Assembly (NCBI GenBank): GCA_964019335.1
Contig: OZ025681.1
Coordinates: forward strand, 248,001 to 312,000
Origin: Diplonema japonicum
Lineage: Eukaryota > Protista > Euglenozoa: Diplonemea
Length of the DNA: 64,000 nt
Direction: 5' to 3'
A model generated the notes under the pieces. The model was not told the DNA's origin. It saw only the letters and a program-made list of their open reading frames with translations, and did no database searches. Positions within the stretch are counted from its first letter, which is position 1; every line of letters starts with the position of its first letter. Made by a program: the position numbers and the translations under genes. Positions 1-59,127 of the stretch are shown here, piece after piece.

Positions 1-2360
1 GGTACACGTCATCCGCGTACGAAAGTGACCAAGCTCCTGGTACTTCCGTCATCACGCACTTCACCATCACCGACACCAAGGCGTTCACCATGATTACCGA
101 GATGGGGCACCCTTGCAGGATACCATTCGTCACTCGGAACTCTGAGCCAACACCTGTCGGGAAACGGAATCGCCGCTTCAGGTTCGCATACATAGCTTTC
201 AAGGGGGTCAGTATCCGCTCGTGCAAACCGAGATCTTGCATCAGGCCAAAAGCTATCTGCTGTGGGACTCTGTCGAAGCACTTGACAAAATCCAACGCAA
301 TGCCGTTGAGAGGGGTGCCTGTCAACAGCGCCTCTTCGAGCTGTGTACTGAGCTCCATCAGAATGCTATCCGTGCCTCTCTTCGGTCTGAAACCATGCTG
401 AGAGTCGTCGATCCACTTCTCTTGCCACAGCGTGATGTCACGCAGCCTCGCACATGCCCACAGCCGATAGACCGCGCTCGTGACTGTGATCGGCCGATGG
501 TTCAGAGGAGTCCTCTCGCCACCCTTCGGGATCAACGTCACCAGCGCTGTCAGGAGTGCTTTCGGCCACTTCCCTGTCGTCTCGACTGCGTTGAACAGCT
601 CGGCCCAAGCATCCAGCAGTACTACCGGCATGGCACGCAGTTCCGCCATCCTCCATCCATCCACCCCTGGAGCCGTTCTCGTTGACTTCTTGGCCAACAC
701 CGCCCTCAGATCCTCTCCTGTAAGTGGTCGAAGTTCCATCTTCTGCGACACGATGTACTCCCTGTACCTCGTTCTAAAGGCGTTGTACTGCGGCTCTCCT
801 CGATCCCCACCGTACAGCTGAAAAATAGGGTCCCACTCCTTGTGCATCATCTTGTCCATCTCTTCAAGATCTGCCGTGAGAACCCCGTCGCCTTCCACTG
901 CCTGCGTTGCTGATGCCGTTGTGCCCTTCACGAAGGCGGTCACCCTCTTCCGTTCCTCCTTGAAGTGGGTGTTGATCCTCTCTTCATACTTCCTTTCACG
1001 CTCGACCCTCGCGTCCTTTGCGATCACTCGCGCCAGAGCGGACAGGTCGTCGTCTAGGCGTTGAAGTTTGATGATAATCGTTTCAAAATTGTCCTTCATC
1101 AGACCCACCTCGCATCTCGGAAGCTGCGGGAGCTTCGCTAGCACCTTTATAGCATTCGCCCAAGTCCTCAGCAGCTGCTCCGGCATGTTGCTTGCTAGTC
1201 CCCTGTCGAGCAGATCTTGGACTCCCGCAAGGATGTGCGAGACTTTCCGCTTCACCTCGGCGATGCACTTCTGCCAGCCCACTGCCGCACCTGTCGCCTC
1301 AACCACAGATTTCGCCGACAGGCACTTCTCCTTTGGTTGTCGCGCCACGCTTCTCCCGACGTAGGCCCTCCGTCTCACCGCTGGCAGGTCCCCGATGCAG
1401 CATTCCTCCGAAACGCACGCTAACGTACTATACGCATCGTCAATGTCGCCGTCGCCCAGCTTCTGCGCAAATCCCCCGACCTGTAGCAGCTCAGCAACTC
1501 GGTCATCATCAGCAGCTTCCATCGGCAACTCCCTCGGGACGAAGTATTTCCTCGTCATGCACTTGAGGGCCGGGATCCGGAGCTGGATTGAGAGGCAGCG
1601 GTGCTCGTTGGTGTAGACTGCGTCGTGTACCCACACCTTCTGTAGGCCTGCCGCCGCGATCGGGTTCAGCAGAACGTAGTCGATACGCGTCTTCGTGTTG
1701 GTGGCCTGCCTGGCAAAGGTGTGGCATGGTTCCACGCCATCCCTCTCGGCTTGCAGCATAGCAGCATCCACCCAATCGCTCCCCACCGCCTGTTGTAGCA
1801 CTCCCGACTGTGACACCGCGGTGTTGAAATCGCCTGCCACGATGATCGGTACGTCACCGAGGACGCATCTCATCTTGTTCAGGACCTTATCCAGCAGAGC
1901 CTCCCGCTGGTGCTTGCCGTGACCGCCCGAGTGACAGTAGACTACGATCAGGTAACCACATATCTCGACCATCTAGGTTGATCATCGAGTGTACCCACCT
2001 GTTGTCGTCAGCTCTTCCTGCCGTATCTTTTACCAGAGCAGGTCGGCGTCGCTGCACCAGCAGACCCACCCCGCCCCTCTTCGCCTTATCAGGAGACGCG
2101 AGTCCATCGACCACGATGCCTGGTTGCGGGCTCCCCCACAACGCGCGATACCTACCGTCGTCCTCGACGTGTCTCCCAACCATCTCCTGACCGTGCTCCG
2201 TCAGCTTCACTTCCTGCAGGCATGTCACGTCGCTCCCCATAGCCAGGACCTCGTCAACCTTGTTGCTCAGGGACCCCACATTGAGTGTGGTGATTATGAG
2301 CGAATCGGGGTCCCTGGCGCCACCCGACTGGACGTCCCTCCGGACGTCCCAGTCCGCACT
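1..2360 (-). CDS. LINE ORF2: APE endonuclease + reverse transcriptase (partial; 1-nt insertion at ~1954)
   Basis: In frame with ORF1 directly after TGA 2363-2361. After the extra T at 1954/55 the frame appears open to the window edge and contains the RT motifs including YADD. Confidence 0.92.
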
Positions 2361-4690
2361 TCAATTGAACTCGGTGTCGATGTCCTGGACAGCCAGGGGG
2401 GCGACCATCGGGGTTAGCTGCTGCTGCACAGGTGTCCCGCCAGCTGCCGCGGCACAAAGGGGGGTGCTGTTGGGCATGATCATCGGCGTCATCTCCCTGC
2501 CTATTCCAGCGGTGGGGACAAGGGCACCTGAGGCCGCTTTCTTGTTGCCCGGCTCGTCCTCGCACTTCCTCTTCCCGCCTGTCTTCCTTGCCGCTTTCGC
2601 CTGTGCCTGCATCTCCTTTTGGATTGAGCCCACCGCCTGTGCGAGGTTGTTCACCGCAGAAGCAATCACGTCCAACTGCTCCAGACGTGCAGCCATCACT
2701 CCCATCTGCTCGCTCAGCGTTTGCACGTTCTGTTGCACGGACATCAACAGGTTGGCCGTCGACGCGTTCTTCCTCTCCATGTCGACGAGCCGGGCCTCCA
2801 TGGTCTTCCTCTCCTGTTCGTTCTCCAGTTCCATCCTTCGCGCCCATTCCACGAACTGGTCGGTGGATGCGGTACCGGAGGTCGCAGATGGCGGTGCCGA
2901 CGCCGGCGCCTGCATCACCGGTGTCGTCTGCGGTTTGTAGAAATGCGTCGACTGCCCAGACTGCTGCGCTTGCCCAGGCTGCTGTGTCTCGGTCGCTTGT
3001 GGTTGAGGTTGAACTCCCGGTTGGGGTGCTGCAGTTGGATTCGGTGCTGGCCCAGCTTGTCTTCCCCACACGGCGTTCGGCGGCAAGGTGAAGACCGGCG
3101 TGTTCTTCACCTCCTTCTTCTTCTTATTCTTGCCCACCCTCAGCAGGTCCCCTTCCATCGGCTGGATGGCCCACCTCACTCCCTGGACTGTCAACACCAA
3201 GCTCCTTGGTTCGGTCGTCGCAGTCACCACCCACGTCTGTCTGCCACTATGCCTGTGCAGCTTCTTCCTCACCGTTGCTGGCCACCCGGAACGGCTCAGC
3301 TTGCCCTCGAGCTCCAGCCCGTTCATTGCTACCGGGACTCCCTGCACCTCGTAGTGGGCACCCTCCAGCAGGTCTACGGCGGTCGCTGTTGTCTTCAGAT
3401 CTGCATGGCGGTCCTTGAGGATCTGCCTTGCGGTGTTGAGTCCGTCCTTTGGCACCCGAACGCCGTACGTGACAGTCTTGCTCGATTTTTTCAGGGTCAA
3501 ACCCCATCCGCCGATGTCATTCTTCATCTTCAGGGCAACCTTCAGAGCCGTGTTCTCCAGCCAGATCACTGGCAGCAGGTCACGCGCCTCCCAAGGCTGC
3601 CTGACGAAAACGCCGTCCTTTCCGCTGCGCGTTAGGATCGCCTTAACGTCTTCCTTCTTTACCGTGATCGGTATTTCTAAAATACCGTCCTTCTTTCTGC
3701 CCCTCTTAGCGAGGTACCTCCCTGCGCGTTCTCTCAGCCATGCCAGCAGACGCGGCCGAGCTTTCTCGGCGTCCTGCGTCGTCTGCGCCAGGAGAAAAAG
3801 CTCTGCAGTGCACGTGGGCTCAGGCTCCTTCTCCTCCGTCTCCTCCATGTCCTCGACAGTCTCGCTAGTGGGCATTGCCGGGTCGCCGTGCCTTGCCGTC
3901 ACGTACAGGCGCCTGTACGTCTTGCCACGTCCCTCGTTTGTCACCAGGAGCCCTGCGGCACCAGGTACACCGCGCGCTCTTGCACCGTCTCCGGGCCCTG
4001 CCACTCCTGCACGTGGACCTGCCACTCATCTCCATCGAGGCACCCCTCGACGGGCTTGCATACTTCTTTCTTCTCGGGCTTCGAACCACCCTTGGCCACG
4101 CTGCGTAGAGGAATGGGGTATCTCGGCCTCGGCTCATACTCATCTGCGTCCGGCTTCCTCGCTCCTTCCTCCCTGCTGAGACACACGTAGTGGTCTCTCA
4201 CATACCCTAGCCACAGCTCCTGTGTGGTCACCATCCCACCCACCGGCCTGGAGGTGGTGCACACCAGGCGATCGTCCCGGACCGCGTACACACAGATCAC
4301 GCGGCCCATGGCTCGCGCCAGGGCATTCACCGCCATCCGGTCTCCCCACGTCCCCGGAAGAGCCACCAGCCGCTGGTACTCCTTCCACGCCCCCTCCGGG
4401 TCCTCTCCAATCATGAAGGACGAGAAGTCCTTCGTCGCCAGGTCTGCCGCCACTGCCTCCCTTAGGGCAGCGGCCCCGTCTCGCGCTCCGTGCACCGCGT
4501 ATGAGGCTGCCTCATACAAGCAGTCTCCCGGCCTCCTCCCCACGTCTTGGACCTTCCAGCCCATCCCCAGCCTGCCGGCTAGGTCGCCCACCGCTTCTCC
4601 TTGCCTGGTGGATTCGCCAGACCCCCCTTTTGGAGGAGCCTGCCCAGGAACCGCCCTCGTGGAGGCTCCACCTCGGCCTTTTGGTGGCAT
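2361..4690 (-). CDS. LINE ORF1 with N-terminal OTU cysteine-protease domain, Gln/Pro linker and C-terminal coiled coil (one frameshift at ~3950)
   Basis: ATG at 4690 (MPPKGRGG). OTU motifs PGDCLYEA (Cys 4522-4520), LREAVA, GTWGD, RDHY (His 4192-4190). Joins ORF 2361..4025 if one G is restored in CAG GG(G) CTC. Confidence 0.8.
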
Positions 4691-4734
4691 TTCTTCGCGA
4701 CTTTTGATGTTAAAAACCCGAAACCCAGTGTTCC

Positions 4735-4790
4735 CTGAAAAAAAAAGGAGGGGAGAGAGAGGGAGAAAAAAAAAAATAACATGTATAGAA
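4735..4790 (-). promoter_or_regulatory. Putative trans-splice acceptor (polypyrimidine tract + AG) 45 nt upstream of the LINE ORF1 ATG
   Basis: Minus strand: tctctctcccctcc(t)ncAG|ggaacac...ATG. Confidence 0.55.
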
Positions 4791-5863
4791 AATTGTTGCC
4801 CATGTAACCCAATCTCATTTAGAAAACCTTTTCCACAGATTCTTATGTTCGAAAAATACAAACAAAAGTTATTCTCCAGAGCTTACGAAAAAAAAAAAAA
4901 AAAAAAAAATGATGAACATGGACCTGTCCGGGAGATAGCGATGAACTTGAATTGAAAATAAAAAAAAAAAAAAAAAATGGGGCGAAACACATCACAGTGG
5001 CTTTTTTATTTTTTTCTATTATTTCTTCTTTTTTTTCTGTTTCTCTTTCTTTTTTTTCAAAGAAGGAGGGGGGGGAAAAAAAGAGAGAGAAAAATATGAT
5101 AAGAAGGCGCACAACGGCCGAGCTGTAGCTTCTCCTGCACTCCGACAACAGCACATCTGATGTACTTCTTTATATCTATGTTATCTTACCACCATACAAG
5201 AAAAAAAGAAAAAGGAAAAAAAGATAGTAATGGCAATCATTAGGTTATTTTATCTCGAATAAACCCAGTAAGCAGCTGTTAAGACAGTAAAAAGAAATAA
5301 AAGAGTCAGGTGGGAAATAAAACAATAATATATGAGTTAAAGGAAGTCTTTTATGAGACGCGCCCCCTTGTTCTCATCCACTACCTGCACCCTACAATAA
5401 TTAAAAAAGAAAATGGGAGGAACAATTCTTCTAATTTACTGTAAAAAAGAAAATCGTTTTTCTTTTTATTTTCTTGTAACCCTTGAATTTACTTTTCGGT
5501 TTGGAATCCCTTCGCAACTCATTTACTGACAAGTTGCTGTTTGTGCAAAGTCGGGAAAAAAAAGAATAGAGAAATCAGTCAACTGATGTGTTTCTCCTTC
5601 AAGCCGTCTTCACCTACAGGGTAGGGATAAACAGACAAGCTGCCTCTACTCTTTTGTGCACTTTTATCAAAGAAAAAAAAAAACAATTTTCCATTCCGAG
5701 ATACCGCTCTTCAGTGGGACAAGATTAAAAGAGATTCTTACAGTAATCAGTTGATAAAAGAATTCGGAGTTTCTTCTGGATTAAAAGAAAAAAAAAAATA
5801 AAAAATAAAAAAAATAGAATGTATCATAGTTCTGAAGTTTCCTTCTTCTTTTTTAAACTTTTT

Positions 5864-13241: not shown

Positions 13242-14396
13242 TTATGGGTTGATAGGTGTGGCCATAGTCCACGTCATGCCCCCATGACTTGTCGTGCCCT
13301 CCACACCATTGGTCAGAAAGATCGGCTTCCCCGTCCCATCAACGATCCACTGAGGCCTCTCACGCCTTCTGAGAGTTTCCGTGGTACCGTCAGTATAAGT
13401 GATATCGCACCAAGGGACCTGGGGGGTAGACTTCCAGTTGTACCCATCCTTGGACCACAGGTAGAGGTAGTTGCACCCGCAGTGCATAAGGATGCGGAAG
13501 GTCTTCTGTGCCTCAGAGTAGTACATCCCAGAGTCCTCGCATTCACTGGGGACCTGAAAGGGAACAGAAGGGGAAGCACGGATGTAAGGCCCAGACCAGT
13601 GCTCAGCAAAGGCCACTCCAGTCAACATAGCATTATAGTTCTCCTTGCTACGCGCCTTGTACACCATCAGGACAGAGGAGTTCGGGAATACGTGAACAGT
13701 AGGGTTGGTGACGAACTGATCATCCCACGCACCAGCGGGACCGGGGGACAAGATAGGCGTCTTAGACCTTTCCCATGGTCCATTAGGGGAGTTGGACGTT
13801 GCAAGACCTATCTGTTGGTTGCAGACAGGCTGCGAAGCAGGGTTTGAAGAGCACGTGTTGCTGCCAAGATCCTTCTCGTCGATTGTGCAGTTTTGTGACA
13901 CAGCACCTGTAGCAGTGCTTCCCATGTAGTAGAGAAGGTATGTTCCATTTGGAGCACGTGCAATGATTGGGTTGTGTTCAGTGAGCCCGTCCCATGTCGC
14001 TGTTGAAGGATGCAGCTGGCCAAGGGAGACATCATGGGGGGTGTAAGGTCCATGGACGGTGTCAGAGACAGAGTGCAGAACTTGGCTGTTTGTAAGCCAT
14101 GATTGAAGTGTGCAGTTGTTGTTCATCATGGCCCCGTACATGTGGTACTTCCCGTCGTCGCCCTTTGCCACCCCGCCGCCCCACGTTGATGTTGTGTTGA
14201 ACTGGTACGACAGGCACAGCCCGCCTTCGCCGCATTTGTAGGACGCTCCGAAGTTCACCTGCTCGCATGCTGCACCCTTGAATCCGAAATCGCATTTGCA
14301 TGTTCCTTGCACGCACAGCCCCCCACCGTTGCAATCGTCATTGGTGTTGCATCCCATGCACCACACTGCAAGGCATGCTAGAAGCAGGCACCGCAT
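13242..14396 (-). CDS. Secreted EGF-like + GH43-like (five-bladed beta-propeller) glycoside hydrolase, paralog A (384 aa)
   Basis: Signal peptide MRCLLL, EGF-like Cys pattern, WGGG..DDGKYHMY, HNP, TNP, CED, RERP motifs. Confidence 0.8.
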   Translation of the reverse strand: MRCLLLACLAVWCMGCNTNDDCNGGGLCVQGTCKCDFGFKGAACEQVNFGASYKCGEGGLCLSYQFNTTSTWGGGVAKGDDGKYHMYGAMMNNNCTLQSWLTNSQVLHSVSDTVHGPYTPHDVSLGQLHPSTATWDGLTEHNPIIARAPNGTYLLYYMGSTATGAVSQNCTIDEKDLGSNTCSSNPASQPVCNQQIGLATSNSPNGPWERSKTPILSPGPAGAWDDQFVTNPTVHVFPNSSVLMVYKARSKENYNAMLTGVAFAEHWSGPYIRASPSVPFQVPSECEDSGMYYSEAQKTFRILMHCGCNYLYLWSKDGYNWKSTPQVPWCDITYTDGTTETLRRRERPQWIVDGTGKPIFLTNGVEGTTSHGGMTWTMATPINP

Positions 14397-14576
14397 TTTA
14401 TTTGTTGGGGTTTTTAGTGACAGGTCGCTGTGGGGGTGAAGAGCGCAGCATAGCTTCACACTAAAGGGGAATGGATTAGAAGGGGCCTAAAGAGCAAGGA
14501 GTAAGGGGTAAGAAGGAAAGGGGGAAGGAATAAAGGAGGGGGAAAGATGTGCTTCCCCCCTCTAAGAAGGAAAAAT

Positions 14577-16045
14577 GAGTCGATTGATGGTTAGTTGTGC
14601 ACAGCTGGGGCTAACCTGTAGAAGGATAAGCCCAACAATGCTACCACTACTCTTTTTTTAACAATAACAATTCATTTTCAATATGTTGTTTTTCTTGTTC
14701 AAACAAAAAAAAAAAAGAGATACACTTTAAAAAAAAATATATATATGAGTTAAAGGAAGTCTTTGTGAGACGCCCCCTTGTTCTCATCCTCTACCTGCAT
14801 CCACCCCCCTTCAGCAGCGGCTTCTCCTTCTTCGGTGGTCGTGCCGGCCTCCTCCCCAGCTTGGCTACTTTTTCCCTTCTTTCCTTTGCCCATTGCTTCC
14901 CCAGCTCCTCCAGGTCGTACTTGGTCTTCGTTGATGCAAAGCTTGCTCTTCTACTCCACCCGATCACCGCCTTCGTCCCTCCGATTGATCGCAGCGTATG
15001 TACTCTCTTGCATGGTTCAGCAGGGAAAGCCTTCTTCATCACCGTGTGCAGTCTTCTGGCCTTCTGTCGCACCTCTGCCAACTCCCCTAGCTTCCCTCCA
15101 AGGGACTTCTGGGTCACGTTTTCGAAATCCAGCGCCAGCTCCACCGTCGACACTGCCGTGCTTCTGTTCCCTCCATACCAGCGCAGCTGCTTGAGCCATT
15201 TCAGCACCGGCTTCGTGTACTCCTTCAGGGTGTTGCCGGTCTGCAGCCTCGCGAACTCCTCCTCTGTTGGTGCTGGGTGTGCCTCCCCCTCCGTGATCTC
15301 CAGCCATTGGTGTGTCCGGTAGATCTGCTGCCTCTTTGCCTGCAAGGCTGCGTCGCGTTCCCCCACCACAGCCAGCAGGTAACGCTGGGTCTTCTCGAGC
15401 CTGTCCTTGTCCTCCTTGGCCGCTTCCCTAGGGAGGATGCCATGGAGCCTCATGCACGGTTCTAGGCCTGTTCGTGTCGTGCCTGCATGTGCCTCCCGTT
15501 GCCCTACTTCGACAGCCAGTTCGCACTCCCACAGTGCATGCTCCAGGATGTTGGATACCTGTTGAATCTGACCGCATATGTCGCAGCGTGCCGTTGCGGG
15601 TTCGTCCTGCTGCCTCTGCTCCGCCAGCAGCATGCGCTCCAGCTCCGCGACTTCCCCTTCTCCTCCCGCCTCTCTTTCTTCTTCGTCTTCTGAGTCGTCT
15701 CGGGAATCTTCTTCGTCCACCTCCTCCTCCGTCGGTGGGATGTGTGCCACTGCGTCCGTCCGCCATCCCCGTGGGTGGACGTAGAAAACCGCGCCTGTGA
15801 TCACCCTGCGTAGGTCCCTTGCTGCTATGGGGTCCGACGACGCCAGCTTCCCCATAGCTCGTTTGTCTCGACAGCGGCTGCCGTCGCCATTCCTTTCATG
15901 GTGCTCCGTTTTCCCATGATGGCCTCCGCTTCACCACGCCTGAGCTTGTCTCTGATGTAGTGTCGGAACGCTCCTTCTCCATGGCCATGGTGTCCTTCAG
16001 CTGGTCCCAGGCCACCACTTGGAGGTTCCCCAGCCATGATTGATT
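14577..16045 (-). mobile_element. 5'-truncated LINE (family 2): C-terminal ORF2 with CxxC..H..C finger plus ~215-nt 3' tail
   Basis: ORFs 15825..16082 and 14791..15855 joined by a frameshift at ~15860. CDIC..HALWEC. C-terminal domain shared with the fragments at 38.6 kb and 63.5 kb. The tail recurs elsewhere in the window. Confidence 0.78.
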
Positions 16046-21097: not shown

Positions 21098-22246
21098 TTA
21101 CAGAATCTCTGTAAGCATAGTCCAGGTCCGCCCGCCATGGCTGGGACCCTGCACACCATTGGTCAGAAAGATCGGCTTCCCCGTCCCATCAACGATCCAC
21201 TGAGGCCTCTCACGCCTTCCGAGAGTTTCCGTGGTACCGTCAGTATAAGTGATATCGCACCAAGGGACCTGGGGGGTAGACTTCCAGTTGTACCCATCCT
21301 TGGACCACAGGTAGAGGTAGTTGCACCCGCAGTGCATAAGGATGCGGAAGGTCTTCTGTGCCTCAGAGTAGTACATCCCAGAGTCCTCACAGTTGTTGGC
21401 AACATTGAACGGGATAGAGGGAACCGCGCGTTCATAAGGCCCGGACCAGTGCTCAGCAAAGGCCACACCTGTAAGAACAGCTGAAAAGTTCTGCTTCCCT
21501 CTTGCCTTGTACACCATCAGGGCTGAGGAGTTCGGGAAGACGTACACAGTGGGGTTCGTTACATACAAGTCATCCCACTCACCAGCGGGACCAGGACCCA
21601 AGGCAGGTTTAGAAGAACGTTTCCAAGGCCCGTAAGGGGAGTTGGACGTTGCAAGGCCTACCCTCTGCATGCAGAGAGACTGCGACTCCGGATCATTCGT
21701 GCACTGGTTGGCAAGCTCCTCATCATCAGGCTTTGTACAGTTGGGTGACGATGCTCCCGTAGCAGTGCTTCCCATGTAGTAGATGAGGTATGTTCCGTTT
21801 GGAGCACGAATGACTGTTGGGTTGTGTTCAGTGAGTCCGTCCCAGTTAGAAGTTGGGGGATGCAGCTGGCCAAGGGAGACATCATGGGGGGTGTAAGGTC
21901 CATGGACGGTGTCAGAGACAGAGTGCAGAACTTGGCTGTTTGACAGCCATGTTCCAAGTGTGCAGTTGTTGTTCATCATGGCCCCGTACATGTGGTACTT
22001 CCCGTCGTCGCCCTTTGCCACCCCGCCGCCCCACGTTGATGTTGTGTTGAACTGGTACGACAGGCACAGCCCGCCTTCGCCGCATTTGTAGGACGCTCCG
22101 AAGTTCACCTGCTCGCATGCTGCACCCTTGAATCCGGAATCGCATTTGCATGTTCCTTGCACGCACAGCCCCCCACCGTTGCAATCGTCATTGGTGTTGC
22201 ATCCCATGCACCACACTGCAAGGCATGCTAGAAGCAGGCACCGCAT
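21098..22246 (-). CDS. Secreted EGF-like + GH43-like glycoside hydrolase, paralog B (382 aa)
   Basis: Paralog of 13242..14396 (offset 7850) with the same motifs. Confidence 0.8.
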   Translation of the reverse strand: MRCLLLACLAVWCMGCNTNDDCNGGGLCVQGTCKCDSGFKGAACEQVNFGASYKCGEGGLCLSYQFNTTSTWGGGVAKGDDGKYHMYGAMMNNNCTLGTWLSNSQVLHSVSDTVHGPYTPHDVSLGQLHPPTSNWDGLTEHNPTVIRAPNGTYLIYYMGSTATGASSPNCTKPDDEELANQCTNDPESQSLCMQRVGLATSNSPYGPWKRSSKPALGPGPAGEWDDLYVTNPTVYVFPNSSALMVYKARGKQNFSAVLTGVAFAEHWSGPYERAVPSIPFNVANNCEDSGMYYSEAQKTFRILMHCGCNYLYLWSKDGYNWKSTPQVPWCDITYTDGTTETLGRRERPQWIVDGTGKPIFLTNGVQGPSHGGRTWTMLTEIL

Positions 22247-22663
22247 TTTCTTTTGTTGGGGTTTTTCTTTTTTTTTTTCTTTCTTTTTTTTCTTTTCTTT
22301 AATGGGGTGGCGGTGTGAAATATGGGATGACAATAAACCAGGAGAAAAAGAAAAAAGAAAAAAAAACGAAGACTTTTGTTTTTTCTTTGTTGGCTAGAAG
22401 GGACTGGAATAAATTATAAGGAGGGAAAGGAATTCCTTTTTTTTTTTGCCGTTCTTATTACACTGAGACTTTGTTTGAGCGGAATTTTACCTAATAAAAT
22501 AGCTCATTACGCTGCCATCAACTAGTTTTTAGTCTCGACAATAATATTGTTAAAACAAAAAAAGGACTAAGAAGTCGAAGAAAGATTGAAATGTTCAAAA
22601 AGAAAAAGAACACCTACAAAAGAAATGGTAGAAGTTTGTAAAGAGCGCCCCAGAAAGGTAAAT

Positions 22664-32710: not shown

Positions 32711-35700
32711 TCACACCCGCGCAAACTCCTGCGGAGCCTGCATCTCGTTCCCCTCCAGGGCGTGGATGAACTCATTCACGTTGATCTCCTCCTTCTGCTT
32801 GCTGCATGCGAAGAAGGCGCACGCCCCGCCAAGGCCCAACACGCCCAAGGCAACGAGGAGCCAGACCCACCAAGGGATCCCGCTGCTGCCGTCGTCGTCC
32901 TCTTCCTCCGGCTCCAGCGCGGTGCCCCCCTTCACGCACACCCCTTTCCTGTCGCACGCCCCTTCCACTCCGTCCAGCACGCAGCGTGCCCCTTCCCCCA
33001 ACCCGTCGCACCCAACATCCGGTGCCGGTGTCATCGCGTTCCCCACCCCGGGTTCCGCCGTCTCAGGGGCCCGTGTCGCGGTAGGGGACGCAGTCGGAGT
33101 CGAGGTGGGGACAGCTGTTGTCCCAGGGACAAGGGTGGCCGGTGCTCCTGTTTCGGGTGCCTGTGTCGGGGTCGCTGTAGGGACAGCCGTCGTCCCAGGG
33201 ACAAGGGTGGCGGGTGCCCCTGTGTTCGGTGCCGAGGTCGGAGTCGAGGTGGGGACAGCCGTTGTCCCGGGTACAAGGGTGGCCGGTGCCCCCGTTTCGG
33301 GTGCCTGTGTCGGGGTCGCTGTGGGAACGGCTGACTGTCCAGGGACAAGGGTCGCAGGAGCCCCCGTGGGCCCAGCGGTGGGGGTCGCTGTGGATGGGGC
33401 CTGCGTGGGAGCCGCTGTCGGCGATGCCGTGTCCCCGGGAGACAGTGTCGTCGGTGTCTTCGTGACAGGTGATCCGCTCGGGACACCCGTCGGGCCTGCC
33501 GTGTCGGGGGAGGTTGTGGGCGTCGCGGTCGGGACCGCCGTGTCCCCAGGTGACAGGGTGGCCGGGACCTCTGTCTTTGGTGCGCCCGTCGGCTCTGCTG
33601 TGGGTGTCAAGGTTGGCGTCCCGGTCGGGATCGCCGTGTCAGGGGCCGTCGTGGGGACAGCCGTCGGCTCCGCCGTCTTCCCGGGAACCAAGGTGGTTGG
33701 CGCATCGGTCACAGGTGCCCCCGTCGGCTCTGCTGTCGGTGTTGCGGTCGGAACTGCCGTGCTTGGCGCCGAGGTGGGGGTTGCTGTCGGGACCGCCGTG
33801 TCGGGTGCTGTTGTGGGGACAGCCGTCGGCTCCGCCGTCTTCCCGGGAACCAAGGTGGTTGGCGCATCGGTCGCAGGTGCCCCCGTCGGCTCTGCTGTCG
33901 GTGTTGCGGTCGGTACTGCCGTGCTTGGCGCCGAGGTGGGGGTCGCTGTCGGGACCGCCGTGCTTGGTGCTGAGGTGGGGGTCGCTGTCGGGACTGCCGT
34001 GTTGGGTGCTGTTGTGGGGACAGCCGTCGGGGCTGTCGTGTCAGGTGCTGTTGTAGGGACAGCTGTTGGCTCCGCCGTGTCAGGTGCCGTTGTGGGGACA
34101 GCGGTCGGTTCTGCCGTCTTTCCAGGGGACAGGGTGTCGGGTGCCGTTGTGGAAGGCGCACCTGTCGGGACAGCGGTTGCAGGTGCCGTGGTCGCAGGTA
34201 CCCCGGTGTCAGGTGCCGTCGTTGGGACAGCCGTTGGCCCCGCAGTGTCGGGAGCGTTCGTCGGGGATGCGGTGGGGACCGTCGTGTCGGGGGAGCTGGT
34301 GGGGATGGCCGTGGGAGCAGCTGTGCTTGGAGCGCCGGTAGGCATGGCCGTGGGAGCAACGGTGTCTGGGGCACCTGTTGGCATGGCAGTGGGGACAGCT
34401 GTGACTGGAGAACCAGTGGGAATGCCTGTCGGAGCAGCTGTGTCCGGAGCGTTGGTGGGAACAGCTGTTGGTACAGTAGTATCAGGAGCGGGTGTTTCAG
34501 GTGCAGGCGTGTCAGGGGCTGGCGATGTTGGGCAGCCATCGGTCCACGCAGGAATCTTGTGTGTGACAGAACAGAAGCCATCACCGTTAGCCGTGCACGA
34601 GGCTTGAACGGTAATCGTCCAATCACGATCCACGTCATAAACCCACGTGTTGCTCCTTTCGTACCTTTCCATGTCCGACATGCTGGCACTCTTCTTCAGC
34701 ATCATATAAAAGTTTTCCCCGTCAAAGAAGTACTTCGTGTGAGGGTTCGCCCACAGGTCCGCAAGGTCAGTCGCCAGAGTATACGTCATGGCAAGTGGGG
34801 TGTTCCACCTGTGTGCGCCAGTCACTGTGAACGTGGTCCCGCTGGGATAAGTGGCCGCGAATCGCAGTGGTGCTCCATTCGGGACTTGCGAAGGATTCAA
34901 GGTGAGGTGCTTTGCGGCACCACCGTCGAGAGCAAGGAACCAACCGGTCCCTGTGATTCCTGTGATGCCCGCATTCTGTGTGATTGGAGTCGAGCGCAGG
35001 GCGTCACCATGGTCAGGACCGTGGCCCCACAGAGCGATGTACCCAACATCGCACGCGCTCCAATCTGGGTTCGTTTTGGGGTTGCACACACCAGCTTCTT
35101 TGATTCCACCTTTCGATGCCGCGATGTCAGGAGTGAGGAGCTTGATAAAGGCGACCTCTCTCTCCGGGAAGCCAGCAGGCTTCTTCGGGCACAGCCACGT
35201 CATCCACAAAGACTCAAAGCGGCAGTCGTCGCACACATTCCACCAGTCCTTGTTCGAACCGAGGATGGTAGGGCGGCCCTCTCCAGTCGCAGATCCGTCG
35301 AAGTCGATGAAGTTGAAGAAGCGAGAAGCACCGTTTTCAGCAACCTTGAAGCTCACGTACTGGCTGGGGTCCACGTTCGTGTACTTTATGTTGTTCACTG
35401 CACTGATCTGCTGCGGTTTGAACTCGTCGGAGTGGAACGGCCCAGACCAGATAATATTGTTATGTGCTGAGTTGCTGGCGCCGTCGGAAGTGTTGTATGA
35501 ACAAAGCTTGTCGTCTTGCTTCCAATTAGTCTTTCCGGGAATAACAGTGTATCTGCAGATCCCTTTTTGGTAGTTGCGGAACTCTGTGTCCGTGATGACA
35601 GATTTGACAGAGATGTCGTAGAACTGGAAGCCGTCGTGGTGCAGGTCCGCCATCCCGATCTCGTCGTTCCCACTCACTCCGTTCACGATCGCATTCCCTA

Positions 35701-37990
35701 GCCACGCCTCGCCGAAGAGTGTAACAGACCTCGAGATGTCGTGGAACTCGATGGTGTCAATGTCTACCCTGTTCCCCCAATGGAGCAGTCCTTTGTTGCA
35801 GGCGTACACCAAGGTGTTCTCAAATTTCATCCACATATTTGTACTCTTCCAGTCAACAAGACCAGGCTCCTTCTCCAAGCGCGTGCTCCTGGCTGCCCTT
35901 CCGGACATGTACTTCAGATTCGGTCCATCATACGAAAGCTCACCACCGACATAAATGCACCCACCAGCACTCCAGTAGGCCCCAGACGAGTGTGCTGTAT
36001 TGCCGTAGAAACGTTTGAAGGGTCGGCTTTGTGGTTCGATCGTTGTGTCAGACTGGAACTCTCCAATGGGTTTCTTAAGGCCGGGGAAGCCAAAGCCAGA
36101 CCAACCACCAGAGGCCACGTTGCCAATAATTTCGTTGTGGGCGTTGGAAAAGTAGAATCCAGCTGCGGATGCGTCTGCCGGCTGGATGCGCTGACCAGAG
36201 GTGAGACCCCCAGCCCCAACATCCTGGTTCACAACCTCACCACTTTGCCCACCGCCAGCGGCAGCCGCACCAATTGGCTTCACATAAGCAGCAAGGTTGT
36301 AGCTCACAGTGTTGTTCTCCTCGACCCCGTCCTCCACGTAGAAGCAGTTGCCTGTGGCGTTGAAGGCTACGTTCTCTGTCTCCAGGACCTCGTGGGTCCC
36401 GTGGATCACGAAGCACCTGAAGTACGTGTCCCTCGCCACGTTGTCAGAGAAGAAGGACCCCGACCCTGCCCCGAGGAGATGGAAGTGGAACGGGTAGCGT
36501 GCCATCGTGTTGGTCTGCCCCATGTAGCGGGTCGCCACACCGGCGAAGCGCCCACGAGACCCTGCGACGATGGTGTGGCCCCCGTACCCCTCTGCGTCGG
36601 GAACCCCCTCCATCATCACGTGCCTGCTGAGGAGCCCGACCTCCCCTTGGTACTCGGTCCCTGCGTAGTGGGCGTACTGCAGCGGTGACTCGAACTGAAT
36701 CAGCATCCCGTCGGGGCTCACAGCCTTGATCGTCATCACCTCGTTCTGGTTGGGCTGCCCGACATCTGTGTCGTCCCAGATCGTCGTCGTCAGCACCACC
36801 TCCTGCCCAGGGTACCAGTTCACCGACTGCTGCAGGTAGGCCCTGTCATCCCCTGCCCGCGCCTTCCTCGCAAGCCGTGCCCACGTCGGGTAGAAGCGCC
36901 TCCCGAACATGTCGATCTCCCCGCTCCCCACAGCAGCCATCCCCTTGCTCCCGTAGGTCTCCAGGTGAGATGCGGGGTCCCCCTTCGTCCCCCAGAAGGT
37001 GATCTTCACGGGGCCCTCCACCCTGCAGGTCGGGGCGCCGATCCGAAGCTTTCCCTTCACCAAGAGGGCCCGTACCTGCAGCGAGATCTCCTCGTCCTTG
37101 AAGATGAGCTCAGAGGTGTCGGGGATCTCAATCTTGTCGTACTGCCCCACGAAGGAATCCTTCCCGACCACCACCTTCGTGTTTCCAGGGATTGTCAGGG
37201 ACCCGGTGGCCGCCCCGAACTGTGCCTCCCAGGTCACGAGCCCAGGCTCCGTCCAAGGGCAGGCCGTTTGCGAGGTGAGCTCTGCAGCAGGCGGCGCAGG
37301 TGGCTGCACCATCACGAACTTCTCGCTGAAGGAAGGGAGCGTGGGGGGAGCGGCCTTCGACTCAGCGTTCCTGTTCAAGCAAAAGTCCGTGAACGAGAAG
37401 TGCGTCTCCTTTGTCGGGCGCGCTGAGAGGTAGAACCGCACCCAGATCGACGAGGCCGCATTGTCGAAGTTCACCTGCGACGTCCATGTCTGCTCGTAGC
37501 GGAACCACCCACTCCCGATGTCTGTCTTGGTGAAGGGTGTCTCCACCCCGCCGATCACGTTCTCCGGCTTATCCTGTGTGTAGTTCGTCGGCCAGATTGT
37601 GTCCTTCGTGTAGGTGGTCTCCATCCCCTGCTTGAAGAGGACAAGCTGCGGCTCGAATGCGAGGTTCGGGTCCTCCTCCCCGGACAGCTTCATGTCGAAG
37701 GTGATGGAGTACGACATGCCCTTCTTGAAAGTGGGGACGGTCGCCGTGTACTTCAGGTACATGTACCAGTCCCCCCAGGCACGGATGGTGAAGGTGCTCA
37801 TCGTGGAGTTGACCTCCTGCTTGTTCCCCCCTGCAACCCATTCGCTCCCTCCTTGAATGGGGGTGTACTCACGGCCGCATGTGGACTCTGCAGCGATGGC
37901 GATCGTCGCTGGGATCGCGGGGCTTGGGGGTGTGGGGAACTGTGCAGCCGCGGAGGCAGCAAGCAGCACCGCCGCAAGAAGGCGGAACAT
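32711..37990 (-). CDS. G8-domain / parallel beta-helix surface protein (fibrocystin-L/TMEM2-like) with Thr/Pro stalk and C-terminal TM, paralog A (~1759 aa)
   Basis: Signal peptide MFRLLAA, G8 (LLVKGKLRIGAPTC..ITFWG), ARYPFHFH, CFVIHGT, mucin repeats, TM WWVWLLVALGVL. Confidence 0.88.
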   Translation of the reverse strand: MFRLLAAVLLAASAAAQFPTPPSPAIPATIAIAAESTCGREYTPIQGGSEWVAGGNKQEVNSTMSTFTIRAWGDWYMYLKYTATVPTFKKGMSYSITFDMKLSGEEDPNLAFEPQLVLFKQGMETTYTKDTIWPTNYTQDKPENVIGGVETPFTKTDIGSGWFRYEQTWTSQVNFDNAASSIWVRFYLSARPTKETHFSFTDFCLNRNAESKAAPPTLPSFSEKFVMVQPPAPPAAELTSQTACPWTEPGLVTWEAQFGAATGSLTIPGNTKVVVGKDSFVGQYDKIEIPDTSELIFKDEEISLQVRALLVKGKLRIGAPTCRVEGPVKITFWGTKGDPASHLETYGSKGMAAVGSGEIDMFGRRFYPTWARLARKARAGDDRAYLQQSVNWYPGQEVVLTTTIWDDTDVGQPNQNEVMTIKAVSPDGMLIQFESPLQYAHYAGTEYQGEVGLLSRHVMMEGVPDAEGYGGHTIVAGSRGRFAGVATRYMGQTNTMARYPFHFHLLGAGSGSFFSDNVARDTYFRCFVIHGTHEVLETENVAFNATGNCFYVEDGVEENNTVSYNLAAYVKPIGAAAAGGGQSGEVVNQDVGAGGLTSGQRIQPADASAAGFYFSNAHNEIIGNVASGGWSGFGFPGLKKPIGEFQSDTTIEPQSRPFKRFYGNTAHSSGAYWSAGGCIYVGGELSYDGPNLKYMSGRAARSTRLEKEPGLVDWKSTNMWMKFENTLVYACNKGLLHWGNRVDIDTIEFHDISRSVTLFGEAWLGNAIVNGVSGNDEIGMADLHHDGFQFYDISVKSVITDTEFRNYQKGICRYTVIPGKTNWKQDDKLCSYNTSDGASNSAHNNIIWSGPFHSDEFKPQQISAVNNIKYTNVDPSQYVSFKVAENGASRFFNFIDFDGSATGEGRPTILGSNKDWWNVCDDCRFESLWMTWLCPKKPAGFPEREVAFIKLLTPDIAASKGGIKEAGVCNPKTNPDWSACDVGYIALWGHGPDHGDALRSTPITQNAGITGITGTGWFLALDGGAAKHLTLNPSQVPNGAPLRFAATYPSGTTFTVTGAHRWNTPLAMTYTLATDLADLWANPHTKYFFDGENFYMMLKKSASMSDMERYERSNTWVYDVDRDWTITVQASCTANGDGFCSVTHKIPAWTDGCPTSPAPDTPAPETPAPDTTVPTAVPTNAPDTAAPTGIPTGSPVTAVPTAMPTGAPDTVAPTAMPTGAPSTAAPTAIPTSSPDTTVPTASPTNAPDTAGPTAVPTTAPDTGVPATTAPATAVPTGAPSTTAPDTLSPGKTAEPTAVPTTAPDTAEPTAVPTTAPDTTAPTAVPTTAPNTAVPTATPTSAPSTAVPTATPTSAPSTAVPTATPTAEPTGAPATDAPTTLVPGKTAEPTAVPTTAPDTAVPTATPTSAPSTAVPTATPTAEPTGAPVTDAPTTLVPGKTAEPTAVPTTAPDTAIPTGTPTLTPTAEPTGAPKTEVPATLSPGDTAVPTATPTTSPDTAGPTGVPSGSPVTKTPTTLSPGDTASPTAAPTQAPSTATPTAGPTGAPATLVPGQSAVPTATPTQAPETGAPATLVPGTTAVPTSTPTSAPNTGAPATLVPGTTAVPTATPTQAPETGAPATLVPGTTAVPTSTPTASPTATRAPETAEPGVGNAMTPAPDVGCDGLGEGARCVLDGVEGACDRKGVCVKGGTALEPEEEDDDGSSGIPWWVWLLVALGVLGLGGACAFFACSKQKEEINVNEFIHALEGNEMQAPQEFARV

Positions 37991-38554
37991 TAAGGAAGTA
38001 CTTTGTAACTGTGAATAATTAATTTGAGGAGACATGCATATTGAAAAAAAAAAAAAAAGAAAGGTGGTATGAAGAAGTTTGAGATATAGGCATACAAGAG
38101 TGCCACACACAGACTATAAGATATAGAGACTGTTTTTTTTTTCCAGGAAAAAAATGAAAAGGATTTATCCTCCTGTCTTTTCCTTTTTTTTCCCCTTTTA
38201 TTGTGGGCCATATTTCGGTGTCGCTGAAGACTTGCAACCAATATTCTTCGTTTCTTTTTGTTTGTTGCAAGATACAATAGCATAAATTATTAACCCCCCC
38301 CTTTTTTTTTTAAAAAGCTCATCGGGAGTGCGGCAACACACAAAAAACGAGAGAAAAACGAAAAAGAAAGGAGAGACATTGTCTTAAGCTTTATTTCTTT
38401 CATTCTTTTTTTTCTTTTTTTTTTTCTTTTCCTTTCTTTTTTTATTTATTTATTTTTTTTTCTTCTTCTGTTCTATTTCTTTTCACTGCTGTACATTCTC
38501 AATGAGAAAGGAAAAACAACAAAAAGAGAAACACGAAAAAAAAAAAAAAAAAGG

Positions 38555-41017: not shown

Positions 41018-44000
41018 TCAGACCCTGACTAGCTCGTTAGGTCCGGTCTTCCCCATAGCAGCCATCTCCGGTCCCTCCAGCACGCTTAGGAACTGGCCTA
41101 GATCGATCTCGGTGTCGCGCTTCCTCTTCTTCATAGCCGCCAAGGCACCGACCATGCACATGCACAACACGCCCAAGGCAACGAGGAGCCAGACCCACCA
41201 AGGGATCCCGCTGCTGCCGTCGTCGTCCTCTTCCTCCGGCTCCAGCGCGGTGCCCCCCTTCACGCACACCCCTTTCCTGTCGCACGCCCCTTCCACTCCG
41301 TCCAGCACGCAGCGTGCCCCTTCCCCCAACCCGTCGCACCCAACATCCGGTGCCGGTGTCATCGCGTTCCCCACCCCGGGTTCCGCCGTCTCAGGGGCCC
41401 GTGTCGCGGTAGGGGACGCAGTCGGAGTCGAGGTGGGGACAGCTGTTGTCCCAGGGACAAGGGTGGCCGGTGCTCCTGTTTCGGGTGCCTGTGTCGGGGT
41501 CGCTGTAGGGACAGCCGTCGTCCCAGGGACAAGGGTGGCGGGTGCCCCTGTGTTCGGTGCCGAGGTCGGAGTCGAGGTGGGGACAGCCGTTGTCCCGGGT
41601 ACAAGGGTGGCCGGTGCCCCCGTTTCGGGTGCCTGTGTCGGGGTCGCTGTGGGAACGGCTGACTGTCCAGGGACAAGGGTCGCAGGAGCCCCCGTGGGCC
41701 CAGCGGTGGGGGTCGCTGTGGATGGGGCCTGCGTGGGAGCCGCTGTCGGCGATGCCGTGTCCCCGGGAGACAGTGTCGTCGGTGTCTTCGTGACAGGTGA
41801 TCCGCTCGGGACACCCGTCGGGCCTGCCGTGTCGGGGGAGGTTGTGGGCGTCGCGGTCGGGACCGCCGTGTCCCCAGGTGACAGGGTGGCCGGGACCTCT
41901 GTCTTTGGTGCGCCCGTCGGCTCTGCTGTGGGTGTCAAGGTTGGCGTCCCGGTCGGGATCGCCGTGTCAGGGGCCGTCGTGGGGACAGCCGTCGGCTCCG
42001 CCGTCTTCCCGGGAACCAAGGTGGTTGGCGCATCGGTCACAGGTGCCCCCGTCGGCTCTGCTGTCGGTGTTGCGGTCGGAACTGCCGTGCTTGGCGCCGA
42101 GGTGGGGGTTGCTGTCGGGACCGCCGTGTCGGGTGCTGTTGTGGGGACAGCCGTCGGCTCCGCCGTCTTCCCGGGAACCAAGGTGGTTGGCGCATTGGTC
42201 GCAGGTGCCTCCGTCGGCTCTGCTGTCGGAACTGCCGTGCTTGGTGCCGAGGTGGGGGTTGCTGTGGGCACTGCCGTGTTGGGTGCTGTTGTGGGGACAG
42301 CCGTCGGGGCTGCTGTGTTAGGTGCCGTCGTTGGGACTGCCGTTGGCCCCGCCGTGTCGGGAGCGTTCGTCGGAGATGCGGTGGGGACCGTCGTATCGGG
42401 GGAGCTGGTGGGGATGGCCGTGGGAACAGCCGTGTCTGGAGCACCAGTTGGCATGGCAGTGGGAACAGCTGTTACAGGAGCACTGGTGGGCATTGCTGTG
42501 GGAGTGACTGTTTCCGGAGCGCTGGTGGGCACTGCCGTCACAGGCGACTGGGTGACAGGAGAAGTTGTAGCTGGTGATCCCGTCGGCTCTGCTGTAGGGA
42601 TGGCCGTTGGCTCCGCCGTGTCAGGAGCCGTTGTGGGGACAGCGGTCGGTTCTGCCGTCTTTCCAGGGGACAGGGTGTCGGGTGCCGTTGTGGAAGGCGC
42701 ACCTGTCGGGACAGCGGTTGCAGGTGCCGTGGTCGCAGGTACCCCGGTGTCAGGTGCCGTAGTTGGGACAGCCGTTGGCTCTGCAGTGTCGGGAGCGTTC
42801 GTCGGGGATGCGGTGGGGACCGTCGTGTCGGGGGAGCTGGTGGGGATGGCCGTAGGAACAGCTGTGCTTGGAGCGCTGGTGGGCACTGCAGTTGGCATGG
42901 CAGTGGGCACTGCCGTCACAGGCGGCTGGGTGACAGGAGAAGTTGTAACTGGTGCTCCTGTCGGCTCTGCTGTTGGCTCCGCCGTGTCAGGTGCCGTTGT
43001 GGGGACAGCGGTCGGTTCTGCCGTCTTTCCAGGGGACAGGGTATCGGGTGCCGTTGTGGAAGGCGCACCTGTCGGGACAGCGGTTGCAGGTGCCGTGGTC
43101 GCAGGTGCCCCGGTGTCAGGTGCCGTAGTTGGGACTGCCGTTGGCCCCGCAGTGTCGGGAGCGTTCGTCGGGGATGCGGTGGGGGTCGTTGTGTCAGGAG
43201 CGTTGGAAGGCATGGCTGTAGGTACAGTCGTGACAGGAGAAGTAGTGGGGATAGCCGTAGGGACAGATGTGTCTGGAGCGCCGGTGGGCGTGGACGTGGG
43301 AATAACCGTGTCTGGGGCGCCAGTTGGCACTGCTGTGGGGGTGACTGTGTCTGGTGCGTTGGTAGGAACAGCTGTAGGGACAGTAGTATCAGGTGCATTC
43401 GTTGGCACTGCTGTGGGGGTGACTGTGTCAGGACTAGTAGTTGGAACAGCTGGTGCCAATGTGTCAGGGGCTGGCGATGTTGGGCATCCCTCGGTCCACG
43501 CAGGAATCTTATGCGTGACAGAACAGAAGCCATCACCGTTGGCCGTGCACGAGGCTTGAATAGTGATCGTCCAGTCTTTATCAACGTCGTACACCCACGT
43601 GTTGTCTCGCTCAAACTTCGAAGAGTCCGCCATGCCTGTGCTCTTCTTCAGCATCAAGATGAGGTTTTCCCCGTCAAAGAAGTACTTCGTGTGAGGGTTC
43701 GCCCACAGGTCCGCAAGGTCAGTCGCCAGAGTATACGTCATGTCAAGTGGGGTGTTCCACCTGTGGGACCCCTTCACTGTGAACGTGGTCCCGCTGGGAT
43801 AAGTGGCCGCGAATCGCAGTGGTGCTCCATTCGGGACTTGCGCAGGGCTGATGGTGAGGTGCTTTGCGGCACCTCCGTCGAGAGCAAGGAACCAGCCAGT
43901 CCCCGCGATACCTGTGATCCCCGCATTCTGTGTGATAGGAGACGATCGCAGGGCGTCACCATGATCAGGACCGTGGCCCCACAGAGCGATGTACCCAACG

Positions 44001-46930: not shown

Positions 46931-47048
46931 GTGTGTGCAACGGTGGAATCTGTGAGGAGTGAAGTAAACAGGAAGAAGGGAAAAAAAGAATATGCAGACG
47001 ACGTATGACGAATGGGTTGATATGATGGTTTAAATATGACCACTATGA

Positions 47049-58662: not shown

Positions 58663-59127
58663 GTTGTTTTGTTGTTGTTTTTGTGCAAAGTAACCTACGG
58701 GAGGGGGATTTCTTTTTCCTCTTCTTTCGTTTGCTTTTTATTCCGGTAGTTCTGAGCGACTAGGCCTTTGTTGTCATCTGGACATGGTGATAGGCAGGCT
58801 TGGGGCCTGTTGAGTGACATCGGAGGTTCCCTATGCGTCGAAAAAGAAAGAAATAGACAAAAAGCATAAAAGCAGAAGGGGAGTGAGGAAGAAAAGGAGA
58901 TTTAAAAGAGAGTAAGAAGCTTTCAAAGTCAGCTAAAGGGCTAGCGGTTGCCTGAAAACTAATGAATTAAGAAAATTGTAACATTTTGAGAAAGAAAGAA
59001 AAACCGACAATGATATTTGTTTCAGAACAATTTCTTCTTGTTCTTCTTCCTTTTTCCCATTTGCATTTCTGTTGCAATTCTTATTCTTTTTGAGAGAACG
59101 CAAAAAGAAAAAAAGAGAAAAAAAATA

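Follow-up and report, generated by a model that had tools for sequence, protein, structure and literature searches.

An in-frame UGA followed by a hairpin at the ORF1/ORF2 junction of a diplonemid LINE: a candidate for stop-codon readthrough

Introduction

How the second open reading frame (ORF2) of long interspersed nuclear elements (LINEs) is translated is a long-open question. The characterized cases rely on reinitiation, as in L1 and SART1, or on 2A-mediated skipping, and readthrough of the ORF1 stop was found only as a sequence-based proposal, made from consensus sequences for the Group 3 LINEs of Paramecium tetraurelia (Guerin et al. 2017, PMC5405496). Here, we describe the ORF1/ORF2 junction of a LINE with an APE endonuclease and a reverse transcriptase (RT), located on the minus strand of a 64,000-nt stretch of Diplonema japonicum DNA (assembly GCA_964019335.1, contig OZ025681.1, positions 248,001 to 312,000 of the forward strand; this whole stretch is referred to as the window). 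ORF1 and ORF2 lie in one frame, separated by a single TGA with a stable hairpin 6 nt behind it. An earlier note on this DNA had proposed that the stop is read through, and we give this explanation a probability of roughly 45%.

The Paramecium Group 3 elements resemble this one as APE-RT LINEs with both ORFs in one frame, and in both cases the arrangement is known from sequence alone. They differ in their host and in a zinc-finger ORF1, where the diplonemid ORF1 has an OTU domain, RRM-like domains and a coiled coil; neither a hairpin nor an AUG-bearing sister figures in the portion of their description drawn on here. The earlier note had implied that readthrough would be new to LINEs, a novelty that the Paramecium proposal reduces (PMC5405496). 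Human LINE-1 (Alisch et al. 2006, via PMC5972666, PMC11485995 and PMC5009743) shares with our element a bicistronic RNA and an ORF2 that, in these accounts, does not rely on an AUG, although L1 retains one after a 63-nt spacer, whereas here the interval is 36 nt, taken up for the most part by the hairpin and devoid of AUG. In SART1 (Kojima et al. 2005, via PMC5902531, PMC3708506 and PMC5972666), a downstream RNA hairpin likewise controls ORF2 output, but, as summarized in these sources, it lies 34 nt downstream of a UAAUG stop-start overlap, while the diplonemid junction has no overlap and its hairpin begins 6 nt after the stop.

Structure-stimulated readthrough is known from the gag-pol of Moloney murine leukaemia virus (MoMLV), from Venezuelan equine encephalitis virus (VEEV), Sindbis virus (SINV) and Colorado tick fever virus (CTFV) (PMC13517186), from the SELENON (SEPN1) redefinition element (SRE) (PMC8704476) and as an arrangement from the gag-UGA-pol of Tca2 (PMC2194720). 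Going by the passages used here, these systems and the diplonemid LINE have in common an in-frame stop, a short spacer and a 3′ structure, with a structural protein upstream and an enzyme downstream; they differ in that the former have UGA-C or UAG-G and at least 8 nt, against UGA-A, 6 nt and a simple 29-nt hairpin here. The pararetrovirus-type shunt has a similar spacing (7-8 nt, against 6 here) but follows a short upstream ORF, whereas ORF1 has 809 codons (PMC5902531, in the part consulted). A literature search, outside whose reach lay most subscription journals, retrieved neither experimental LINE readthrough nor a description of this diplonemid family. Two co-resident and apparently active sister families share the junction hairpin, one with an AUG and one without, and so constitute a natural pair of about 60 nt each: if readthrough is true, this is a LINE with structure-stimulated readthrough, and if restart is true, it is a natural case of start-codon-free, hairpin-guided reinitiation.

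Stop, spacer and hairpin

The features of the junction and of ORF2, in the order in which they are transcribed, are the following.

2361..2363, minus strand: TGA terminating ORF1, context AAT-TGA-AGT (from the sequence; the related ORF1, P0068, has the same EFN end, and no variant is listed)
2355..2360, minus strand: 6-nt spacer AGTGCG (from the sequence)
2326..2354, minus strand: 12-bp hairpin with one bulge and a GGAG loop, beginning at +10 when the first stop base is counted as +1 (from folding)
2325..2327, minus strand: TCG (Ser) codon at the position of the closest sister's ATG, its first two bases forming the last stem pairs (from alignment)
2316..2324, minus strand: Gly-Gly-Ala, kept in all three families (from alignment)
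1953..2315, minus strand: N-terminal part of the APE endonuclease, with TLNV and LQEVK (PF03372, E 0.0018, below cut-off)
1..1950, minus strand: remaining ORF2, with the C-terminal part of APE, a linker and the RT (about 532-5, YADD at the window edge; PF00078, E 8.9e-13; 74% identity to P0001), running off the window

Much of what the earlier note had described is borne out by the sequence and the ORF translation: ORF1 ends at the TGA at 2363-2361, ORF2 continues in the same frame, and the junction protein reads EFN*SADWDVRRDVQSGGARDPDSLIITTLNVGSL. After TGA-AGTGCG comes the GC-rich hairpin GACTGGGACGTCC-GGAG-GGACGTCCAGTC (2354-2326), just as reported, with 12 bp (8 of them G-C), one bulged G, a 4-nt loop and a folding energy of -20.0 kcal/mol. 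The note was also right that no ATG precedes the first APE strand; there is none in any frame from 2407 to 2282, which leaves no SART1-type overlap of stop and start. An out-of-frame ATG stands at 2281, and the first in-frame ATG of ORF2, at 2240-2238, is codon 41 past the stop, inside APE and behind its TLNV strand. The first codon that the element has in common with the sister families comes 36 nt after the stop, and the hairpin occupies most of this interval. The codon at the position of the sister's AUG, UCG, is two mismatches away from it.

The hairpin is no GC artefact. Its z-score is -3.74 in the 38-nt window chosen in the earlier note and weakens to between -0.7 and -2.4 in wider windows, so the signal is local. 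Among 4705 30-nt windows of the element, it has the lowest energy (-21.7 kcal/mol; mean -5.6, standard deviation 3.0, next -18.9), and of the 124 stop triplets in the element only the ORF1 TGA is followed by a hairpin of -17 kcal/mol or lower starting between +4 and +15. The same folding behind 16 other long-ORF stops of the window gave 0 to -8.7 kcal/mol. Rfam yielded 20 weak matches in total, all in the low-complexity flank at 4915-5158 and none at the junction. Global reassignment of UGA, which the note had dismissed, is rejected here too, as TGA closes several long host ORFs in the window (e.g. at 41020, 32713, 61767, 55833 and 29150). The junction is a real, conserved and non-canonical one. 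In another frame of the minus strand, a 289-codon open frame at 2254-3123 overlaps the end of ORF1 and spans the junction; it is probably a by-product of codon bias.

Sister families and the sister hairpin

The nearest proteins to ORF2 are encoded by LINE transcripts of D. japonicum itself, P0001 (74% identity) and P0002/P0013 (61%). In the RT tree, which was built from matches found in the analysis, without reference members of the named LINE clades (L1, Ingi, RTE), P0001 is the sister and P0002/P0013 the outgroup, with support of 89/78 for the window family plus P0001. The P0001 ORF2 starts MGGARDP where the window reads SGGARDP, and that of P0002/P0013 starts MSGGAEC, with Met one codon earlier; the 'complete ORF' label on these sequences we take to mean an in-frame stop upstream. 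The sister family is also present in the runs analysed below, where three of three amino-acid differences match P0001.

Beyond 2325, 30 letters of sister DNA are visible, as the same string in X1, X2, X3 and X11, reaching 2 nt upstream of the sister's stem. Folded, they give a hairpin that matches the window hairpin in position and in its GGAG loop and has 10 of the 12 pairs (-11.0 kcal/mol, z -2.9). The final two bases of its stem are the AT of the sister ATG, at the 3′ base of the hairpin. In its five outer pairs every base differs from the window, and all remain Watson-Crick paired. Random letters produced this five-pair outcome in 0.3% of 5000 trials (1.4% with G-U allowed) and reached the sister energy in 1.3-4.4%. 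A conserved 3′ structure stands near the stop, with compensatory change in the outer stem in one sister family only; as one comparison, it is suggestive and short of formal covariation. The nine visible sister codons before the ATG are open (HEDIRRDIF against DWDVRRDVQ in the window), and the sister stop lies a few bases beyond the visible letters. In the related ORF1 P0068, the end of ORF1 is kept at the protein level. A search for partial junction ORFs with the first 263 residues of the sister gave none among 433 candidates, and the metagenome and genome scans returned 15 loci that, at 30-59% identity, are too distant for alignment at the junction.

Selection on ORF2 and its AUG-less start

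Between the window and the sister, all seven base differences listed in 2241-2291, that is, before the first ATG, are synonymous, as are 15 of the 18 changed codons listed in 2131-2291. The protein alignment adds two replacements near the ORF2 start (D/N and I/T), one on each branch. Measured against the outgroup P0013, 45 replacements are private to the window and 42 to P0001, and the RT end branches are 0.057 (window) and 0.085 (P0001). Judged by these substitutions, ORF2 is evolving as a working gene and not as a decaying one, the stretch before the first ATG included. Because the changes there are mostly synonymous, the AUG-less start of APE appears to have been translated along most of the window branch. 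In its single in-frame stop between two constrained ORFs, the arrangement resembles a readthrough cassette.

Conservation of the junction among copies

Variants were compared in eight runs, of which seven cover the junction, the X12 contigs ending at 2310, short of it. For X1, X2, X3 and X6 the comparison concerns the listed variants, with 54 others unlisted, and for X7, X11 and X13 all 11 are listed. Among the variants listed in these seven runs, none falls on the TGA, the hairpin or the TCG, and the majority contigs carry the TGA and the hairpin unchanged. Depths of 11.7 and 24.5, compared with 7300 and 8350, put the two X7 contigs with one difference each across the junction at the level of error. 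A private nonsense mutation was considered and rejected, as the majority contigs share the TGA and the ORF1 of P0068 also ends in EFN. For the same reasons, the TGA can be regarded as the conserved, true end of ORF1 in this family, and the earlier note's expectation that most copies keep the stop in place of a sense codon is upheld. A joint skipping the stop was listed in none of the eight runs, a weak negative given that the data are contigs.

The diverged copies of X13, possibly an RNA run, show 5 and 10 differences in 127 nt, and from the overlap of contigs at least two of these would lie in 2353-2360, without a gap. At 3-8% divergence, the unchanged stop and hairpin are not significant. 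With eight of eight listed variants non-synonymous (the row at 2289 belongs to a contig of another family and is left out of this count), these copies are decaying; they therefore date the junction and are not evidence of selection on it.

Readthrough and its alternatives

The favoured explanation is that the enzyme is made by readthrough of the UGA into an ORF1-ORF2 polyprotein. The ancestor would have started ORF2 at an AUG by the foot of the hairpin, as both sisters appear to do, and the window lineage would then have lost that AUG. In the proposed mechanism, the hairpin 6 nt past the stop would slow ribosomes, a few of which would read through the UGA, and the OTU protease encoded by the element might afterwards cut the enzyme out of the polyprotein at the conserved Gly-Gly-Ala. 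Readthrough accounts for the open frame, for the non-cognate UCG and for the stronger stem at +10, the window hairpin being about twice as stable as that of the sister (-20.0 against -11.0 kcal/mol). An in-frame ORF2 without an intervening stop would arise by chance in an estimated 1 in 4-5 cases. In relatives, other domains or 2A-like motifs are joined in frame to the N-terminal side of APE, so an N-terminal extension is tolerated. The Gly-Gly-Ala is a speculative candidate for a protease site: viral OTU-type proteases cleave after Gly-Gly, a Gly-Gly also stands just before APE in an OTU-APE-RT family of Diplonema papillatum, and both could be sites of OTU cleavage. The full scenario, in which a LINE lineage went over from AUG restart to gag-pol expression in the manner of retroviruses, all inside a single host genus, reusing an ancestral hairpin as the readthrough stimulator of an OTU-ORF1-APE-RT polyprotein whose enzyme is freed by its own OTU at Gly-Gly-Ala, is improbable as a whole.

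A number of observations weigh against readthrough. In the two sister families, the Met that opens ORF2 stands at the UCG position of the window or one codon ahead of it, and the families branch as sister and outgroup, which makes it probable that the shared hairpin first served initiation. No natural ORF1-ORF2 fusion occurs among six ORF1 matches. The copy variants are mostly non-synonymous among those listed (8 of 8 in X13, one of them nonsense; 8 of 11 in X6; 3 of 4 private to the window). The stem, which the earlier note expected to be kept with compensatory changes, is so kept in the five outer pairs of the P0001 family, the single family available, and has two C-A mismatches there. The likeness that the note drew to the gammaretroviral gag-pol and SEPN1 architecture extends to the stop, the short spacer and the 3′ structure and stops at the weak UGA-A context and the spacer below 8 nt, although a 6-nt spacer has been quoted for the SRE. 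The context AAU-UGA-AGU falls outside the three types of leaky viral motif (UAG-CAAUYA, UGA-CUA/CGG and UAG-G plus pseudoknot) set out in the consulted part of PMC4615788, where a U at -1 is also linked to low readthrough. In the sections of PMC13517186 relied on, known viral stimulators mostly begin at +12 or later, and the spacer is at least 8 nt in MoMLV, VEEV, SINV and CTFV. The UGA and 3′ structure of Tca2 gave no readthrough in a reporter, according to the relevant passage of PMC2194720.

The note's inference of a polyprotein accordingly stands as far as the stop, the stem and the constrained AUG-less start are concerned, and falls short in that the same architecture fits a restart of translation, both sisters having Met at the hairpin foot. 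Ribosomes may terminate at the UGA and, with the hairpin looping out the spacer, restart independently of AUG at its foot, giving separate ORF1 and ORF2 proteins as in L1. The restart codon would be AUG in the sisters and, here, UCG or one of the near-cognates AGG (2315), AUA (2297) and AUC (2294). We regard such a restart as a serious, if tentative, possibility, with readthrough slightly ahead and the two close. It would explain all three families by a single mechanism, it fits a sister AUG that coincides with the 3′ base of the hairpin held in common, and it gains from the weak readthrough context. The cited excerpts also report that translation of L1 ORF2 does not depend on an AUG (PMC11485995, PMC5009743) and name looping as a possibility for L1 (PMC5972666). 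In the shunts of plant viruses, the stop comes 7-8 nt ahead of a stem that is followed by a non-AUG start, and SART1 coupling requires a downstream hairpin (both PMC5902531). Yet UCG is not near-cognate, stop and start do not overlap, the uninterrupted frame from ORF1 into ORF2 would be down to chance, shunting as described requires a short upstream ORF and not one of 809 codons, and a stronger stem in the AUG-less family is unexpected if scanning has to pass it.

It is unlikely, in our judgement, that the full ORF2 is no longer made, the AUG having been lost and the family being copied in trans by the sister enzyme or surviving on a shortened protein from the ATG at 2240. The missing AUG, the abundance in the same runs of a sister family with an AUG-led ORF2 and the neutral look of the copy-level variants speak for such a loss, as does, weakly, the lack of a full-length protein of the window family among the 12 long matches listed. 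Protein rates are nevertheless equal on both branches, and the stretch before the ATG differs mostly at synonymous sites; the change from AUG to UCG takes two base differences, both paired in the stem; the diverged X13 contig spanning the UCG has no listed change at this codon; and a protein started at 2240 would be without the initial strand of APE and the conserved, presumably functional Asn in it. Bypass of the stop by RNA processing (cis- or trans-splicing, or editing) or decoding of the UGA as selenocysteine is very improbable. Diplonemids trans-splice their mRNAs, and the TGA could be spliced out by any of 17 in-frame GT-AG pairs, but none of the four best-looking donors listed has the GTRAGT consensus, and a trans-spliced ORF2 message would still be without AUG, its first (2281) being out of frame. 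SRE-type hairpins aid selenocysteine insertion, as stated in the part of PMC8704476 drawn on; the 3′-untranslated region required for a selenocysteine insertion sequence lies off the window.

The element and its copies

The 5′ two thirds of the LINE occupy 4735-1 of the minus strand, and its 3′ half lies beyond the window. Its remaining features are as follows.

4691..4735, minus strand: 5′ leader of 45 nt (majority contigs stop at 4735 in X1 and X2; boundary inferred)
3951..4690, minus strand: 5′ part of ORF1 with an OTU cysteine-protease domain at about 4528-4196 (PF02338, E 1.6e-07, above cut-off)
3950..3951, minus strand: 100-nt loss private to the window copy, a frameshift between the OTU part and the remaining ORF1 (100 letters at the joint in 4 of 4 runs)
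3159..3815, minus strand: predicted tandem RRM-like domains of ORF1 (AlphaFold model and Foldseek)
2580..2867, minus strand: predicted coiled-coil helix of ORF1 (model helix 362-457; 47% identity to P0068)
1951..1952, minus strand: 2-nt loss private to the window copy, a frameshift inside APE (4 of 4 runs)

A profile search of ORF2 placed the RT domain above cut-off (PF00078, E 8.9e-13) and, N-terminal to it, PF03372 on both halves of the APE endonuclease, each below cut-off; the closest homologues of ORF2 have both PF03372 and PF00078. With RT and APE in place, the element is an APE-type non-LTR retrotransposon, that is, a LINE. A viral scan confirmed none of 169 stretches.

The window copy is damaged by two private lesions, which set it apart from the majority form of all four runs compared, and its own translation would end at 3943. 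In the majority form, which has 2 nt more near 1951 and 100 more at 3950, OTU is in frame with ORF1 and ORF2 is open at the site of the lesion. The depth of window-private alleles against that of the majority is 15.4 to 181.1 (X1, 2676) and 79 to 700 (X2, 3620). This minority depth points to dispersed copies, as in a LINE, and suggests about 7-12 near-identical ones, depth being a poor proxy for copy number. No second copy of the element was found within the 64-kb window. It is apparently a young, multi-copy and active diplonemid LINE.

The apparent 5′ end of the element, by contig ends, is near 4735. Directly before it, at 4735-4775 (minus strand), a long pyrimidine tract ending in CAG has the look of a trans-splice acceptor of the host. 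Insertion behind acceptor-like sites, or carriage of one by the LINE itself, may provide the element with a capped leader.

The ORF1 protein

With the 100-nt loss restored, ORF1 is 809 codons long. Its OTU domain contains the motifs GDCL (Cys) and DHY (His), which we take to be catalytic. The AlphaFold model has a mean pLDDT of 55.9, rising to 70-85 across most blocks of the RRM-like part, and its top Foldseek matches, both of them triple-RRM proteins, are Raver1 and Prp24 (E about 6e-5, low TM). The features in this low-confidence model that may mark a nucleic-acid-binding protein are the RRM-like folds and the coiled coil. A word-based search with ORF1 gave no match; P0068 is a related ORF1 of about 50% identity that likewise terminates in EFN.

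Relatives and other features of the window

An OTU domain occurs in the related LINE group, in which OTU-APE-RT and 2A-APE-RT members place an OTU or a 2A-like motif directly before APE, whereas the window family has neither there. The DxExNPGP-like 2A motif of the L1Tc/Ingi type is absent before APE from the translation of the window element; P0006, P0007, L002 and L012 carry it, and others have a degenerate form. Both 2A motifs and OTU domains have been described ahead of a LINE APE (PMC3708506, PMC13405545, in the parts consulted). The P0001 family has its hairpin at the same position and a 74% identical ORF2, but a Met before APE.

2A-like motifs (DVEQNPGP, GEASNPGP, DVHPHPGP and others) were seen before APE in many distant relatives (L002, L006, L007, L008, L011, L012, P0006 and P0007), immediately ahead of it or, in L007 and L008, further upstream. 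The L011 and L012 contigs are filed under bacterial or archaeal metagenome-assembled genomes and are probably eukaryotic contamination. In L005 (1091-1160), a distant relative of 35% identity known from one copy, an upstream ORF and ORF2 share a frame and are parted by a single TGA; CTG and a GC-rich structure come next, and the first Met is about 51 codons on. The representative of the P0003 cluster (37 members) begins inside APE, behind the catalytic Glu, and this cluster may also be without an AUG before APE.

Elsewhere in the window, 14791-15930 (minus strand) holds the 3′ part of another LINE ORF2, by eye like the C-terminus of P0004/P0033 (AARDLRR..GAVFY, and a CxxC..H..W.C finger). Host genes or segments are duplicated in pairs, 32711-38113 with 41018-47029 (89%), 13242-14486 with 21098-22393 (88%) and 54449-56223 with 59117-60890 (99.7%); they include long Pro/Thr-rich repeat proteins and a protein with DTPAP repeats that, from its motifs, is presumably CAP/SCP-like.

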